Shown here piece by piece: positions 3,691 through 11,005 of a DNA stretch of 64,000 nt (its first letter is position 1; the number at the start of each line of letters is the position of its first letter). The translations under genes and the position numbers were made by a program. This stretch comes from an uncultured Actinomycetes bacterium (GTDB lineage: Bacteria > Actinomycetota > Thermoleophilia > UBA2241): contig CAVYCN010000003.1 of assembly GCA_963767005.1 (NCBI GenBank), forward strand, positions 352,001 to 416,000, written 5' to 3'. The notes under the pieces are model-generated. The model saw only the letters and a list, made by a program, of their open reading frames with translations. It was not told the origin of the DNA and made no database searches.

Positions 3691-3694
<4 letters not shown>
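3269..3694 (-). CDS. acpS: Holo-ACP synthase
   Basis: GVGTDAVEV, ARFAAKEAVGKALG, LSLSH motifs; overlaps the glmS stop. Confidence 0.95.
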
Positions 3695-5517
<1,823 letters not shown>

Positions 5518-5870: not shown

Positions 5871-6347
5871 TCAGGAGCCCGCCTCACCCTCCCAGTAGTC
5901 GACCGCGCTCTCGCGGCGCACCATCAGGTCGTCGTCGCGGTTGCCGGTCCAGATGGCGACCTTGCCGCTGTCGGGGTAGACGGTCGCGGCCGGGTGGCAG
6001 ACCGTCGACCACATGAGGATACGCACTGTCTCGGCCGTCTCGTTGCGCACGCCGTGAGCGCCGGCCGGCCCCGTCGGAAAGCATACGACGTCCCAGGGCT
6101 CGAGGACGTCCTCGCCTTCGGGGTGACGCAGCGTCGGCCGGCCTTCGAGCACGAGCAGCCACTCCTCCTCGGCGTACTCGTAGTGATAGGGGCAGACGGC
6201 CTGACCGGGCGGCAGCTCGTACACGCTCGCGCCGAGCTGGGCCGCACCGAGCAGGGGACCAAAACGGAACGTGCCGCCGCGAAAGCCGGCGGGGTCGTCG
6301 CTGTCGTAGATGAACCGGGGCCGGGCGATGTTGACGTGAGGCGGCAT
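5871..6347 (-). CDS. Cupin domain protein
   Basis: YELPPGQAVCPYHYEYAEEEWLLVLEG..GPAGAH cupin motifs. Confidence 0.9.
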   Translation of the reverse strand: MPPHVNIARPRFIYDSDDPAGFRGGTFRFGPLLGAAQLGASVYELPPGQAVCPYHYEYAEEEWLLVLEGRPTLRHPEGEDVLEPWDVVCFPTGPAGAHGVRNETAETVRILMWSTVCHPAATVYPDSGKVAIWTGNRDDDLMVRRESAVDYWEGEAGS

Positions 6348-6371
6348 GGGCGGGTCATACCCGCCCATGCC
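6343..6371. terminator. 13-bp perfect hairpin after the APC permease, overlapping the cupin start codon
   Basis: ggcatgggcgggt-cat-acccgcccatgcc. Confidence 0.55.
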
Positions 6372-6390
6372 GCCCGCCTGACCGTCAGCG

Positions 6391-7863
6391 TCAGGCGTCG
6401 GCCGTGCTCTCCGACCGACGACCGGCGCCGGCGTCGGGCAGCACCGGGGCGTCGGGGGCGCCGGCGCGGTGCGCGAGCCACCAGCCGACCACCATGCTGA
6501 TCGCCGTGCCGCCGGCCGTGACGATCCAGTACGTCACCTTGGGCGTGCCGTCGGGCACGAGATAGAAGAACAGCACGATGGCGAAGACCACGCCGGCCGT
6601 CGTCAACGCCACGGAGAGCCACGCCCCGGCCCGCCCGCCCGGCACCGTGTAGGGGCGCTTCGTGCCCGGCTGCGAGCGCCGCAGCAGGAGCAGCGCCGGG
6701 AACATGAGCAGGTACGGGAACAGGAAGACGATCGAGCTCAGGGCGAAGATGCTCCAGAACACGCTCTCCCTCGTCGCGAAGAAGGAGTAGTTGATGACCG
6801 TGATGGCGGTCGAGAGCACCCCCATGAGCACGAAGGCGTAGTCGGGCGTGGTGAAGCGCCGGTTGGTGTGGCCGAACACGCCCGGCGCGGCGCGGTCGAG
6901 GCCGGTCGAGGCCATGCTGTGGTTGGCGCCGATCGACCAGGTGACCATGTTGCCGATCAGCGTGAAGAGCAGCAGCACGATGAAGACGTCGTAGACCGTC
7001 CCGGCGGCGCCGCCCAGGACGGCGTGGAACGAGAGCTTCATGGCGTCGGCCATGCCGGTCACGATCGAGAGGTTCTTGAGCGGGATCGCCGCGAGGATGC
7101 CGAAGTTGCCGACGAGCTGGGCCACGACGATGATCACGCCGGCCAGCAGCAGCATGCGGGGGATGTCACGCCGCGGGTTGCGCACCGCGCCGGCCGCCGA
7201 GCTCATGAGTTCGAAGCCCATGAAGTTGTAGACGATGATCGGCAGGAAGCTCCAGTTCGCCCCGAACGACGGCTTCCAGGCCGACGCCGCAAACGAGTTG
7301 GCGAGGCCGTGATGCACGGCGAAGGCGAGGCCCATGGCGCCGAGCATGACGAGCACGCCGACCTTGAGCGCCGCGCTTGCGCTGTTCACCCACTTGCTGA
7401 GCGACAGCGGCAGGACGCCGATCAGCACCACGAGCCAGATGAGGGCGATCACGATGATCTCCGCCCAGGTGTTGCTCATGCCGCCCCAGAAAGCCGCCGA
7501 GAGCGTGCCGGCGAAGATGACGAAGACCGCCGGCGCCCAGTAGGCGACGTTCACCCAGTACAGCCAGGCGGTGAACGTGCCCCAGCGCGGTCCGTAGGCC
7601 TCGCGCACCCAGACGTAGATGCCGCCCTCGTCGGGCCAGCCGCTGCCGAGCTCCGCGGTGATCAGCCCGTAAGGCACGAAAAAGATCACCGCGAACAGGA
7701 TGAAGAGCGTGATGCTCTGGACGCCGATCGCCGACGACGTCGCGACGGTGTCCAGCGTGATCATCGCCGAGACGGCGAAGAGGGTCATCGAGACGATGCC
7801 CATGGTGCGCGGCTGGTCGGCGAGCGTCACCCCGGCCGCGATGCCTCTGCTTTCTGTCGCCAT
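6391..7863 (-). CDS. APC-family amino acid/polyamine permease (AguD agmatine/putrescine antiporter-like)
   Basis: About 12 TM segments; PYGLITAELGSGWPDEGGIYVWVREAYG and FMGFELMS motifs; AGGAGG SD. Confidence 0.88.
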   Translation of the reverse strand: MATESRGIAAGVTLADQPRTMGIVSMTLFAVSAMITLDTVATSSAIGVQSITLFILFAVIFFVPYGLITAELGSGWPDEGGIYVWVREAYGPRWGTFTAWLYWVNVAYWAPAVFVIFAGTLSAAFWGGMSNTWAEIIVIALIWLVVLIGVLPLSLSKWVNSASAALKVGVLVMLGAMGLAFAVHHGLANSFAASAWKPSFGANWSFLPIIVYNFMGFELMSSAAGAVRNPRRDIPRMLLLAGVIIVVAQLVGNFGILAAIPLKNLSIVTGMADAMKLSFHAVLGGAAGTVYDVFIVLLLFTLIGNMVTWSIGANHSMASTGLDRAAPGVFGHTNRRFTTPDYAFVLMGVLSTAITVINYSFFATRESVFWSIFALSSIVFLFPYLLMFPALLLLRRSQPGTKRPYTVPGGRAGAWLSVALTTAGVVFAIVLFFYLVPDGTPKVTYWIVTAGGTAISMVVGWWLAHRAGAPDAPVLPDAGAGRRSESTADA

Positions 7864-7915
7864 TGTGGACCTCCTCTTGCGACCTGCCGTGGTACCCGCC
7901 CGACGACCGCGGCTC

Positions 7916-8962
7916 CTAGCGTACGAGCGCCCGCCCGATGGCGGCGAGCTCGGGGTCGTCGGGCGGTGTGTCGATGCCGATGAGCGCGAGCAGCAGCGCC
8001 TTCTGGAAGTGCTTGCGGTTCTCCGCCTCGTCGAGCACGATCGAGAACGGCGCGTCGAGGATCGCGTCGGTCATCTCCTCGCCGCGCACGGCCGGCAGGC
8101 AGTGCATGAACACCGCTCCCGGCCTGGTGTGACGCCAGAGCGCCTCGTTCACCTGATAGGGCGTGAGCTCGCGGCGCAGCTTGCGCACCTCGTCGTCGGG
8201 CTGCATCCACCACCAGCCGACGGTGAACACGACGTCGGCCTGCGAGACTGCCGCCACCGCGTCGTCTGTCAGCGTGAGGGTCGCGCCGCTGCGCGCGCAG
8301 TTGAGCCGCACGAGGGCGGCCGTCTCGTCGGTCATCTGGTGCCCGGCCGGGCCGGCCATCACCATGCTGCTGCCCAGGCGTGTCATGGTGAGCGCGACGG
8401 AGGTGCCCATCGCGTCAGCGCACTTGCCGACGAAGGCGCAGGTCAGGCCGCTCACCGTACCGAAGCGCTCGCGGATCGTGAGCGCGTCGGTCATCGACTG
8501 CACGGGGTGGTCGTAGTCGTCGGTGAGCCCGTTGATGACGGGCACGGTGGCCGCCGCGGTGAGCTCGGCCAGCGTCGAGTGGTAGGCCGTGCGCGCCATG
8601 ATGGCGTCGACCAGGCGGCTGATCACACGAGCGGTGTCGGCCACCGTCTCGTGGCCGCCCAGGTGGATCTCGCCGGGCCGCAGGTACTGGGCGTGGCCGC
8701 CGAGCTCGGTCATGCCCGCCTCGAAGCTGATGCGCGTGCGGGTCGACGGATGCTCGAAGATCATCGCGAGGGTGCGTCCCTCCAGGAACGGCGTCAGCGG
8801 GCGGCGCCGGTACGCGGCCTTCAGCGCGACCGCGAGGTCGAGCAGGCCGGTGAGCTCCTCGGCCGTGAACTCCTGATCGGTGAAGAAGTGGCGGCCTCGC
8901 AGCGACGCCAGGCTGCCGGGGGCGACCGGCTCGCTCACCGGCCGACGGACTGTCTCGCTCAT
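7916..8962 (-). CDS. Putrescine/ornithine carbamoyltransferase-family protein (PtcA-like, divergent acceptor loop)
   Basis: STRTR carbamoyl-phosphate motif, GGHET..DTARVISRLVD, HPVQ, HCLPA.RGEE, EAENR. Alternative ATG at 8971. Confidence 0.88.
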   Translation of the reverse strand: MSETVRRPVSEPVAPGSLASLRGRHFFTDQEFTAEELTGLLDLAVALKAAYRRRPLTPFLEGRTLAMIFEHPSTRTRISFEAGMTELGGHAQYLRPGEIHLGGHETVADTARVISRLVDAIMARTAYHSTLAELTAAATVPVINGLTDDYDHPVQSMTDALTIRERFGTVSGLTCAFVGKCADAMGTSVALTMTRLGSSMVMAGPAGHQMTDETAALVRLNCARSGATLTLTDDAVAAVSQADVVFTVGWWWMQPDDEVRKLRRELTPYQVNEALWRHTRPGAVFMHCLPAVRGEEMTDAILDAPFSIVLDEAENRKHFQKALLLALIGIDTPPDDPELAAIGRALVR

Positions 8963-8978
8963 GCTCGCCATCACCTCT

Positions 8979-9036
8979 TGGTTAAACGGACATTTATCAC
9001 TGACTCTTATATGACCGTTTAACCAGATGCTGTCAA
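8979..9036 (-). promoter_or_regulatory. sigma70-type promoter with two TetR-like operators
   Basis: TTGACA at 9036-9031 in an AT-rich island. Inverted repeat tggttaaacggacat (8979-8993) / atgaccgtttaacca (9011-9025); each arm sits in a TAAAYG-NN-CRTTTA-like palindrome (8983-8996, 9008-9021). Confidence 0.75.
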
Positions 9037-9065
9037 GCGCTGACCGGCCGGCGAGCGCCTCGTCT

Positions 9066-9671
9066 TCAGTCCCGCGATAGTCCCAGGTAGTGGTCGATGA
9101 CGGCGCGCCAGGCGCGCCAGGCACGGGCGTGGTCGAAGCCGTCGGGGTCGAGCGCGCGCTGGATGGCGAGCCCCTCGACCACCGCGATCGTCACGGCCGC
9201 GAGCGCCTCGGCGTCGTCGAGGTCGGTCGGCGCCGCGTCGAGAAACTCGGCGTCGATGCGCCGGAAGAGGCGATACTCGTCGGCGAAGCGCCGGCGCACC
9301 TCCGGGTCGCGCAGGGCCTGGGGCAGCAGCTCGTAAAGCTGGCGATTCACGCGGTCGCGGGCCGAGACGCGCTCCTGCCAGTCGAGGAAGCGCCGCGTGC
9401 GCAGCGGGCCTTCGGCCTCGTCGCGGACCGTCTCGGCGAGCCCCGCCCCGGGATCATGGAAGACGCCGTCGACGAGCGCGGCGATCAGGCCCGCCTTGCC
9501 ACCGAAGTAGTAGGACACGAGCGCGCGGTTGGCGCCCGACTCGGCTTCGATCGCGGCCATCGTGAGCTCGGCGAAGCCGCGTTCGGCGAGGATCGTCTGG
9601 GCCGCCGCGAGGATGCGCTGGGCCGTCGGCGGCAGTGGTCGGGCGGGGCCGAGTGGCGGCTCGGCGGCTAT
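9066..9671 (-). CDS. TetR/AcrR-family transcriptional regulator
   Basis: RILAAAQTILAERGFAELTMAAIEAESGANRALVSYYFGGKAGL HTH. No ATG/GTG/TTG between the glmM stop and the HTH; an ATA at 9671 behind AGGAG is proposed, so the start is uncertain. Confidence 0.85.
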   Translation of the reverse strand: MAAEPPLGPARPLPPTAQRILAAAQTILAERGFAELTMAAIEAESGANRALVSYYFGGKAGLIAALVDGVFHDPGAGLAETVRDEAEGPLRTRRFLDWQERVSARDRVNRQLYELLPQALRDPEVRRRFADEYRLFRRIDAEFLDAAPTDLDDAEALAAVTIAVVEGLAIQRALDPDGFDHARAWRAWRAVIDHYLGLSRD

Positions 9672-11005
9672 GCGCCGAGCTCCTGCTCGACCACGGCCAC
9701 GATGCGTCCGCAGACCGCGTCGCAGTCGCCTTGCGTGGCGGCCTCGGCCATGACCCGCACGAGCGGCTCGGTGCCCGAGGCCCGCACCAGCACGCGACCC
9801 TGGCCGGCGAGGCGCTCGGTCTCGCGCGTAACGGCGTCCCAGACGGCGCGCGCGCCGTCGAGCGCCTCGCGATCGCGCACGCGCACGTTGACGAGACGTT
9901 GCGGCAGGCGCTCCATGACGGCCGCCGCCTCGTGCAGCGGGCGCCCGGTCTCGCCGAGGGCCTGCAACAGGAGGAGCGCGGTCGCCAGGCCGTCGCCCGT
10001 CGTCGACACGTCGCGGTTGATGATATGGCCCGACTGCTCGCCGCCCAGCACGTAGTCGTGCTCGAGCATCTCGGCGATCACGTAGCGGTCGCCGACCGCC
10101 GTCGTGACGACCTCGATGCCCTCGCGCCGCATCGCCAGGTGAAAGCCGAGGTTGGTCATCACGGTGGTGACCACGGTGTCGCCGCGCAGGCGGCCCCGCG
10201 TCTTCAGGTGCGTGGCGAGGATGGCGATCACGAAGTCGCCGTCGACGAGGGCGCCGCGGGCGTCGACGGCGAGCACGCGGTCGCCGTCGCCGTCGAAGGC
10301 CAGGCCCAGGTCGAAGCGGCCCTCGCGCACGACCCGCTGCAGGGCCTCGATGTGCGTCGACCCGCAGTCGTGGTTGATGTTCAGGCCGTCGGGCTCGGTG
10401 TGCAGCAGGCTGAGGTCGGCCCCCGACTCGCTCAGGGCAAGCGGCGCGGCGCGATACATCGCGCCGTTCGCGCAGTCGACCGCGATACGCAGGCCCGACA
10501 GGTCGAGCGGGATGCGACGCACCACGCTCCACACGTAGCTTTCGACCGCGCCCTCGACGACCTCGGCGCGCCCCACCTGCTCGCCGCGCGCCGAGGCGAT
10601 GTCGTGCCGGCCGACGTGACGCTCGATCTCGGCCTCTTCGTCGTCCGACAGCTTGAGGCCGAGGTGGCTGAAGAACTTGATGCCGTTGTCGGCGAAGGGG
10701 TTGTGAGAGGCGGAGACGACGACGCCGGCGTCGGCGCCGCGCTCGACGACGAGCGCGGCGAGCCCCGGCGTCGGGATCACGCCGGCGATCTCGACGGCGC
10801 CGCCGCCGCTCGTGACGCCGGCCACCAGGGCGGCCTCGAGCATGGAACCCGACACGCGTGTGTCGCGGCCGATCAGGAACAGCGGCGCATGGCCGCGATG
10901 GGCGGCCAGCACGAAGGCCGCGGCGCGACCCACCTGGAGCGCGAGCTCGGCGGTGAGCTGCTCGCCGGCCAGGCCGCGGATGCCGTCGGTGCCGAACAGG
11001 GCCAC
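9668..11005 (-). CDS. glmM: Phosphoglucosamine mutase
   Basis: LFGTDGIRG, SASHNP, DGDGDR, GGEQSGH, RASGTEP. Confidence 0.98.
   Translation of the reverse strand: MALFGTDGIRGLAGEQLTAELALQVGRAAAFVLAAHRGHAPLFLIGRDTRVSGSMLEAALVAGVTSGGGAVEIAGVIPTPGLAALVVERGADAGVVVSASHNPFADNGIKFFSHLGLKLSDDEEAEIERHVGRHDIASARGEQVGRAEVVEGAVESYVWSVVRRIPLDLSGLRIAVDCANGAMYRAAPLALSESGADLSLLHTEPDGLNINHDCGSTHIEALQRVVREGRFDLGLAFDGDGDRVLAVDARGALVDGDFVIAILATHLKTRGRLRGDTVVTTVMTNLGFHLAMRREGIEVVTTAVGDRYVIAEMLEHDYVLGGEQSGHIINRDVSTTGDGLATALLLLQALGETGRPLHEAAAVMERLPQRLVNVRVRDREALDGARAVWDAVTRETERLAGQGRVLVRASGTEPLVRVMAEAATQGDCDAVCGRIVAVVEQELGA

Follow-up and report, generated by a model that had tools for sequence, protein, structure and literature searches.

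We analysed a 64,000-nucleotide stretch of DNA from an uncultured Actinomycetes bacterium of the Thermoleophilia (the window; positions 352,001 to 416,000 of contig CAVYCN010000003.1, assembly GCA_963767005.1), in which a transcarbamylase gene with an altered acceptor pocket lies between glmM (9668-11005) and glmS (3691-5517), the upstream and downstream flanks of its gene block. An earlier, sequence-only reading of the window had described a block of four genes here, encoding a TetR-family regulator, a transcarbamylase, an APC permease and a cupin, without a deiminase or a carbamate kinase. Our analysis confirmed the block, which is on the minus strand as are both flanks, and found neither of the two missing genes inside it; both are present elsewhere in the same genome. 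The regulator has a BetI-type C-terminus (9066-9671), its start being taken as an ATA that overlaps the glmM stop. Between it and the enzyme gene lies a predicted promoter and TetR operator (8979-9036, minus strand), in which TTGACA (9031-9036) is followed by an 18-bp inverted repeat with arms at 9008-9025 and 8979-8996 and the half-site GTTAAACGG. The transcarbamylase (7916-8971; alternative start at the second ATG, 8962) has 351 residues and is derived from putrescine transcarbamylase (PTC), with an intact carbamoyl-phosphate site and an altered site for the distal amine. The APC permease, likely an antiporter (6391-7863), is 51-64% identical to the permeases of agmatine operons whose transcarbamylase keeps the PTC residue Asp227 (the Asp227 type) and 27% identical to AguD of Enterococcus faecalis. 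A perfect 16-bp hairpin in the gap between permease and cupin (6340-6374) may act as a terminator or sequester a start site, and the last gene encodes a Cupin_2 protein (5871-6347/6368).

The motifs quoted in the sequence-only reading were correct: STRTR (residues 76-80), HPVQ (155-158), FVGKCAD (180-186), TVGWWWMQ (250-257) and HCLP (290-293). In an alignment, the carbamoyl-phosphate residues S76-T79, R127, H155, Q158, HCLP and R319 are identical to those of E. faecalis PTC, and the traits of the aspartate/ornithine carbamoyltransferase superfamily (SxRT, HPxQ, HxLP, the conserved Arg and the two-domain fold) are all present. A structure predicted from a 99-sequence alignment (pLDDT 95.5, compared with only 34 for a single-sequence fold) superposes on PTC structures at 1.4-1.8 A; structures of ornithine transcarbamylase (OTC) match this model too, and the top match both by sequence and by fold is the Pyrococcus furiosus OTC. 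Like PTC, the enzyme combines STRT and HCLP with the lack of a Lys two residues before STRT, where it has His74, and carries a C-terminal extension of about 20 residues (332-351) with a predicted helix at 340-350. The 230-loop signature reported for PTC is (Y/W)(G/W)(V/L/I)X (PMC3282769); at W254-W255-M256-Q257 two of its three defined positions fit, the Met lying outside the set and being Leu in many homologues. The helix-13 signature (L/f/v/i/m)XX(F/Y/L/M/v)(L/i/m) was not seen by eye in residues 332-351, and the putrescine-site residues Q164, D227 and Y233 are replaced by A187, V251 and Q257. The best NCBIfam model is that of putrescine carbamoyltransferase, TIGR04384, at 338 bits and under the cut-off of 500; this is a narrow model, since the Asp227 paralogue of the same genome fails it too (306 bits). 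The ornithine models are passed (TIGR00658, 303 bits against a cut-off of 281, and PRK00779), and pipelines therefore name the enzyme an OTC. The OTC traits, a DxxxSMG loop and the Lys of FxKxSxRT, are absent from the enzyme, as are the HDLP and (T/S)RWQ loop of the transcarbamylases for diaminopropionate (DPTCase) and diaminobutyrate (DBTCase), in whose places it has HCLP and TVGWWWMQ. Of the agmatine deiminase operon (aguA, antiporter and carbamate kinase), only the permease is found at the locus, aguA and arcC standing beside a paralogue on another contig. Because the binding residues, the helix-13 signature, the family model and the operon did not agree with PTC, we do not class the enzyme as one; by sequence it is a transcarbamylase that resembles PTC and is not an OTC, DPTCase or DBTCase.

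The altered residues lie in two short segments. Against E. faecalis PTC, D161, T163, Q164, D227 and Y233 become K183, D186, A187, V251 and Q257, and Q164, D227 and Y233 have been reported to form the putrescine site (PMC4581275). Codons 183-186 (K-C-A-D; 8414-8425, minus strand) hold Lys183 for Asp161 and Asp186 for Thr163, adjoined by Ala187 for the amine-binding Gln164, and codons 251-255 (V-G-W-W-W; 8207-8221, minus strand) hold Val251 for Asp227. The loop Asp is missing in 116 of the 120 best homologues, and 97 of the 120 have GK; the four that keep the Asp are only 53-57% identical to the enzyme. This rejects a one-off degenerate allele, and the variant forms a conserved group, mostly from Thermoleophilia, in which close homologues that keep the Asp are not the rule. 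A scan of species-representative genomes returned 42 loci. Three are ordinary OTCs; the other 39 belong to this group and come, with few exceptions, from Thermoleophilia, Acidimicrobiia or Actinomycetota without a closer placement. Genomes of the same genus or family as the window carry the loci seen in named Thermoleophilia records, on which we base its placement in that class. In 118 aligned sequences of the triple-Trp (WWW) group, which exclude 14 homologues that are partial or frameshifted and three quarters of the closest 55, an Asp or Glu occupies PTC position 163 in all 97 sequences without Asp227 and in none of the 21 that have it; 17 of these 21 have His or Asn at 164. By these comparisons the enzyme group is a real, conserved variant of the PTC-like transcarbamylases, and what is new about it is that Asp227 and Gln164 are gone and a neighbouring position has acquired an acid, not the triple Trp. 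The sequence-only reading had taken the missing Asp together with the triple Trp as a sign of a new acceptor, such as an alkylated, quaternary or hydrophobic amine. However, the Asp-keeping paralogues of complete agmatine operons have WWW as well, and it comes close to the PTC signature; it therefore does not indicate such an amine and was rejected as a specificity change, and the invariant new acid, Asp186, speaks against a purely hydrophobic pocket.

In phylogenies the WWW group is one clade (SH-aLRT 99) that joins PTC-like proteins against OTC (SH-aLRT 99). The expectation that the variant would form a clade with a conserved APC and TetR neighbourhood was borne out in part: the Asp-less enzymes group together in FastTree (support 0.93) and a TetR gene is conserved nearby, but the SH-aLRT support for this grouping is only 56, as with all our likelihood supports from a quick tree, and the APC permease is exchangeable. 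Loss of the Asp and gain of the acid may have been one event. Matches to the enzyme of at least 63% identity occur in 30 of 75 family genomes, and 27 of these 30 also hold a paralogue of 45-57% identity; Asp227 is kept in 22 of 24 such paralogue loci, mostly agmatine operons. Ordinary agmatine use is thus already covered in most genomes that carry the enzyme. Both types stand side by side at two Acidimicrobiia loci. At loci L009 and L015 the Asp-less enzyme lies beside an Asp227 one with no kinase nearby.

The genome of the window itself encodes at least seven intact OTC/PTC-like proteins, the window enzyme included. A separate SMG-type ArgF scores 406 bits, and an Asp227 WWW enzyme (C4:465584-466594) lies in a TetR-transcarbamylase-arcC-aguA cluster whose kinase and deiminase pass their cut-offs; in total the genome has two carbamate kinases and two full and two partial deiminases. 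Other copies were observed as well. A second Asp-less subtype, with GNGDCM and TSLWWW (L044:8824-11911, C3:325823-328910), is associated with a TetR clade of its own and lies near a divergent deiminase, an ABC system of the peptide type and a C45 acylase. A PTC-like copy with a disturbed STRTR and a deiminase fragment before it (L045:3574-4644, C3:29573) is likely decaying, and another broken copy lies at C3:4178-5083. A near-identical OTC-like pair (L046:12298-13233, C3:78297, and L048:5738-6673, C18:84737) has GDIWNV and GNTWHSM, no loop Asp, and neighbouring genes of amidinotransferase/DDAH-family, methyltransferase-like, NCS1-like permease and nitrilase types; it is possibly another uncharacterised transcarbamylase specificity.

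Gene neighbourhoods were counted within 5 kb after removal of duplicates; because part of the loci lie on short contigs, these are minimum counts. Among 40 Asp227-type loci, TetR was found at 37, a kinase at 31, a canonical deiminase at 23 and an amidase at none; among 45 Asp-less loci, a carbamate kinase was found at none and an altered N-carbamoylputrescine amidase at 22. The subtype of the window (31 loci) has TetR at 27, which upholds the association with this regulator, and a secondary transporter at 24. The permease is not a fixed partner, as two APC types, two NCS1 types and one MFS type replace each other (window-type APC 6, second APC 4, NCS1 10, MFS with CocE 6, some loci having two). 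An amidase adjoins this subtype at 14 loci, a deiminase at 3, and MttB and a cupin at 2 each. Genome-wide, an AguB match of at least 337 bits was found in 23 of the 30 genomes with the enzyme, compared with 6 of the 45 without it, and two of these six hold a cut or frameshifted copy. In six loci one NCS1 type is preceded by a protein of 63-76 residues without a Pfam match (L013:9127-9345), which may be a small subunit of the transporter. A histone-deacetylase-family gene flanks the Asp227-type operons at 28 of 40 loci (L097-L118, L121, L132-L134), hinting that these operons use acetyl-agmatine or an acetyl-polyamine. The whole genome of the window has 35 matches to an MttB-family query, many of them near TetRs of the same family, which suggests that the host is a methylated-amine specialist; one further match was to a query that we take, from its sequence, to be CO dehydrogenase-like.

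The partner enzymes are altered in parallel. The terminal amine of the substrate has been reported to bind Asp220 of plant agmatine iminohydrolase, four residues before His224 (PMC6447857), and the deiminases beside Asp227 enzymes have a Glu four residues before the catalytic His. At seven of nine loci of a sister subtype with TVLWWW there are extra deiminase copies with Ser, Val or Thr in place of this acid, usually accompanied by a divergent copy that keeps an Asp. These sister loci carry up to three different deiminase paralogues each, and their transcarbamylases have DCLP instead of the near-invariant HCLP (L028, L030-L034, L076, L120). In the amidases, Glu187 is described as setting the substrate's charge and length (PMC4812014). 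When this position was mapped by its spacing from Ala183-Ile184, Asp was found in all 22 amidases beside Asp-less enzymes and in 27 of the 30 family loci returned, and Glu in one amidase beside an Asp227 enzyme and in all four named references. A precedent for extended substrates comes from SpeY, which makes bis(guanidino)homospermidine; diverse deiminases, including that of E. faecalis, are reported to convert it to the bis-carbamoyl form, and both forms are described as genuine bacterial metabolites (PMC13625781). Among 201 genomes searched, nine encoded SpeY and four of these a deiminase; three of the four deiminases, presumed to act on diagmatine, have His and not an acid at the far-amine place. 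Three canonical-type amidases of SpeY genomes keep Glu187, and a change of Glu187 to Asp was therefore not supported as a marker of bis-carbamoyl-homospermidine. Thus, at the level of sequence, the SpeY comparison supports an extended substrate for the deiminases and not for the amidase.

The module appears to be regulated on its own. The pattern TTGACA-N8-10-TAAACGSTCAT was matched 21 times in 20 of 75 genomes, on each occasion immediately upstream of the window subtype, and never in a reversed control; as it had been derived from these same loci, only its absence elsewhere is informative. The half-site occurs twice in this genome, both times at this locus, and a strict promoter scan returned no site. 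Asp227 loci have a different upstream palindrome (28 of 241 loci, duplicates included), and the TetR tree separates by enzyme subtype. We also looked for an operator shared with aguA and arcC, which the sequence-only reading had named as evidence against its proposal, and found none, the agmatine deiminase operon having the other palindrome. For each enzyme type there is a separate TetR clade and a separate candidate operator, and both types are present in this genome. Searches for similar structures, made for the TetR and a neighbouring amine oxidase, gave no clue to the ligand. No ATG, GTG or TTG precedes the helix-turn-helix of the TetR, either here (9660-9690, minus strand) or in the closest relative, G011 (L082:6640-6670), and the ATA that overlaps the glmM stop is preceded by an AGGAG/GGGAG site, suggesting either that the TetR uses a non-standard, coupled start or that the insertion removed its start.

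The earlier proposal of an acquired cassette that splits glmM and glmS held for the TetR, the enzyme and the permease, which are inserted in the spacer, but not for the cupin. A cupin occupies the same site in G009, G003 and G002, three genomes of the same genus without the enzyme at that position, and lies within 5 kb at only two of 31 loci; it was therefore rejected as a pathway member and is an older resident of the spacer, outside the cassette. In 15 corresponding regions from relatives, glmM and glmS are adjacent in four and have other cargo between them in several. In G011, the closest relative, the TetR and the enzyme stand at this site as well, but the APC permease is a different one (29% identity). 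From this spacer comparison, the three genes are a recent insertion upstream of an older cupin, with an exchangeable transporter. The cargo of the spacer varies over the genus and family (L147-L161), and the spacer is therefore an insertion hot spot. Base composition gave no clear foreign signal (67-71% GC compared with 71-75%). An 82%-identical copy of the enzyme with the same promoter motif occurs in a record titled Deltaproteobacteria (L004:591-1601), which reflects transfer or misbinning.

Building on what was established directly, namely gene content, residue changes, tree position, neighbourhoods and a conserved DNA motif, we infer a substrate, a direction of reaction, a TetR ligand and a mode of transport. 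Our preferred proposal, held with slightly less than even confidence, is that an inserted TetR-transcarbamylase-permease module encodes a PTC offshoot without Asp227 and Gln164 that would remove a carbamoyl group, as carbamoyl phosphate, from a ureido-polyamine with a capped or extended far nitrogen. All readings taken together, a substrate other than N-carbamoylputrescine is probable, because the far-amine residues are lost, a complete agmatine operon coexists, the regulators are separate and the partner enzymes have changed in parallel. Breakdown of a ureido compound would follow from the intact carbamoyl-phosphate site, the catabolic ancestry and the uptake genes. Phosphorolysis of a ureido group is uphill, carbamoylation being the favoured direction; an extended or bis-carbamoyl polyamine is favoured because it best accounts for deiminases occurring in pairs and for an amidase downstream that would pull the reaction. 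The most likely substrate would be a bis-carbamoyl compound such as N1,N9-bis(carbamoyl)homospermidine or N,N'-dicarbamoylputrescine. In the proposed sequence of events, the permease would import the ureido compound or its guanidino precursor, and the TetR would bind the imported compound and leave the inverted repeat at 8979-9025. The enzyme would then phosphorolyse one ureido end, a carbamate kinase encoded elsewhere would convert the carbamoyl phosphate to ATP, and the mono-ureido product would be drawn off, through the amidase next door in relatives, or else through the Asp227 paralogue or export. A wider version of this proposal, which we regard as doubtful, is a hitherto undescribed four-step route of these actinobacteria for bis-guanidino polyamines such as diagmatine or arcaine: two specialised deiminases would form the bis-carbamoyl compound, this enzyme, as the first bis-carbamoyl-polyamine transcarbamylase, would conserve one carbamoyl group as carbamoyl phosphate for ATP, and an altered amidase or the ordinary PTC would take off the second. 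The enzyme would then be one of several separately regulated transcarbamylase specificities that radiated within one family.

Several observations weigh against the preferred proposal. No carbamate kinase is ever adjacent, which weakens the ATP step, and a deiminase adjoins only three of the 31 loci of the window subtype, with no match to the divergent deiminase in 14 of the 30 enzyme-bearing genomes. The genome of the window has no match to SpeY, no amidase of the AguB family (best 125 bits, cut-off 410) and no acid-less enzyme among its two full-length deiminases, and the amidases of SpeY genomes are unaltered at position 187. In the permease tree the window permease is a sister of the ordinary agmatine-operon permeases, and Asp186 could restore putrescine binding or, in the model, merely cap helix 187-198. 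The low SH-aLRT value for a single origin of the Asp loss counts on the same side, and the related genomes are not independent samples, so no probabilities were attached to the counts.

The sister position of the permease and the acid invariably gained at position 163 would also suit an enzyme that is still a PTC, in which Asp186 stands in for Asp227 and Gln164 and the module imports N-carbamoylputrescine under separate control. One pairwise alignment puts Asp186 on Gln164, the score of the one neighbouring amidase examined exceeds the AguB cut-off, and of five PTC sequence traits in the literature four are present or nearly so. However, ungapped relatives place Asp186 at Thr163, the same genome usually has a complete Asp227 operon (with both types at the two Acidimicrobiia loci), an adjacent amidase acting on the same substrate would waste the reaction, and the partner enzymes are also altered at their far-amine residues. 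We therefore consider an isofunctional PTC unlikely, if worth serious attention. An N-methylated or quaternary diamine as acceptor, tied to demethylation of methylamines by the host, has a small probability in our view. The 35 MttB-family matches, one locus at which the enzyme lies within an MttB cluster, and an alternative permease resembling that of an MttB cluster in this genome all point this way, and the loss of hydrogen-bonding residues with retention of a counter-ion would suit an alkylated amine; but MttB lies within 5 kb at only two of 31 loci, WWW is ancestral and provides no new aromatic cage, and no source was found for an abundant methylated ureido or guanidino diamine.

Slimmer still is the chance that the far nitrogen is acylated, as in acetyl- or aroyl-agmatine or putrescine conjugates, and that a neighbouring hydrolase later strips the acyl group. 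CocE at six of 31 window-subtype loci, PuuE-like or isochorismatase-family genes at five of nine sister loci and the C45 acylase in a paralogous operon of this genome are consistent with it, and NCS1 transporters favour neutral solutes. On the other hand, the invariant new acid and the acid kept in the amidases suggest a cation, the histone-deacetylase-family gene flanks the Asp227 type instead, and the cassette holds no hydrolase. Forward carbamoylation of an amine, serving detoxification, export or biosynthesis rather than ATP yield, would be thermodynamically favoured and would fit the lack of a nearby carbamate kinase at all 45 Asp-less loci; we regard it as very improbable, given an ancestry among catabolic PTC-like enzymes, a neighbourhood of deiminases, amidases and uptake systems, and the futile cycle that a linked amidase would create. 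The automatic annotation as OTC, which passes the two ornithine cut-offs and under which many homologues are named, can hardly be right: the DxxxSMG loop and the Lys before STRT are lacking, the enzyme groups with PTC against OTC, and the genome has its separate SMG-type enzyme.

If the enzyme acts on an extended or capped polyamine, it would represent a new enzyme specificity and add a way for uncultured Thermoleophilia, probably anaerobes, to obtain ATP and nitrogen from recently described polyamine intermediates. A recurring misannotation as ornithine carbamoyltransferase would be corrected as well. If putrescine is still the substrate, the relocated counter-ion would be of narrower structural interest. 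To our knowledge, only a small number of acceptors have been described for transcarbamylases. A family review states that it has yet to be settled whether PTC-like sequences whose pockets vary are genuine PTCs (PMC4581275). The Asp-less group is a clean test of specificity, since the same genomes hold an Asp227 enzyme together with one or two paralogues that lack the Asp, each with its own regulator and partners. We found no published description of the group, or of agmatine or putrescine use by Thermoleophilia, in a search that left subscription journals mostly, and supplements, outside its reach; the accessible parts of PMC514541, PMC12283126 and PMC10765591 do not mention the group.

Among known systems, the PtcA (EC 2.1.3.6)/agmatine deiminase system of E. 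faecalis shares with the window enzyme its fold, the carbamoyl-phosphate residues, the lack of a Lys before STRT, an aromatic 230-loop, the extra C-terminal helix and a related APC permease downstream, at about 40% identity. The window enzyme differs in having K, A, V and Q for D161, Q164, D227 and Y233 and a new acid at 163, in scoring under the TIGR04384 cut-off, in lacking the helix-13 signature and in an operon without deiminase or kinase. The uncharacterised Asp227-keeping WWW paralogues of Thermoleophilia and Acidimicrobiia (about 50% identity) belong to the same radiation and share the WWW loop, TetR control and a related permease, but Asp227 is retained in them, as in most cases are D161 and a His or Asn at 164, and they come with canonical aguA and arcC and another palindrome. 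With OTC (ArgF/ArcB) the enzyme shares the fold and the carbamoyl-phosphate site; unlike OTC, it has no SMG loop or carboxylate-binding Lys and has an extra C-terminal helix. In DPTCase and DBTCase, as reported in PMC4581275, the Asp of the 240s loop has likewise been lost, alongside a change of acceptor and a compensating Asp at another place, although their (T/S)RWQ(T/S)(T/M)G and HDLP differ from TVGWWWMQ and HCLP here. Finally, the route of diagmatine (G44G) iminohydrolase and C44C amidohydrolase is similar in that paralogues of the agmatine pathway were re-specialised for an extended bis-guanidino polyamine, whereas that homospermidine route is biosynthetic, linked to SpeY and composed of hydrolases only, with no transcarbamylase described in the accessible part of the report (PMC13625781).

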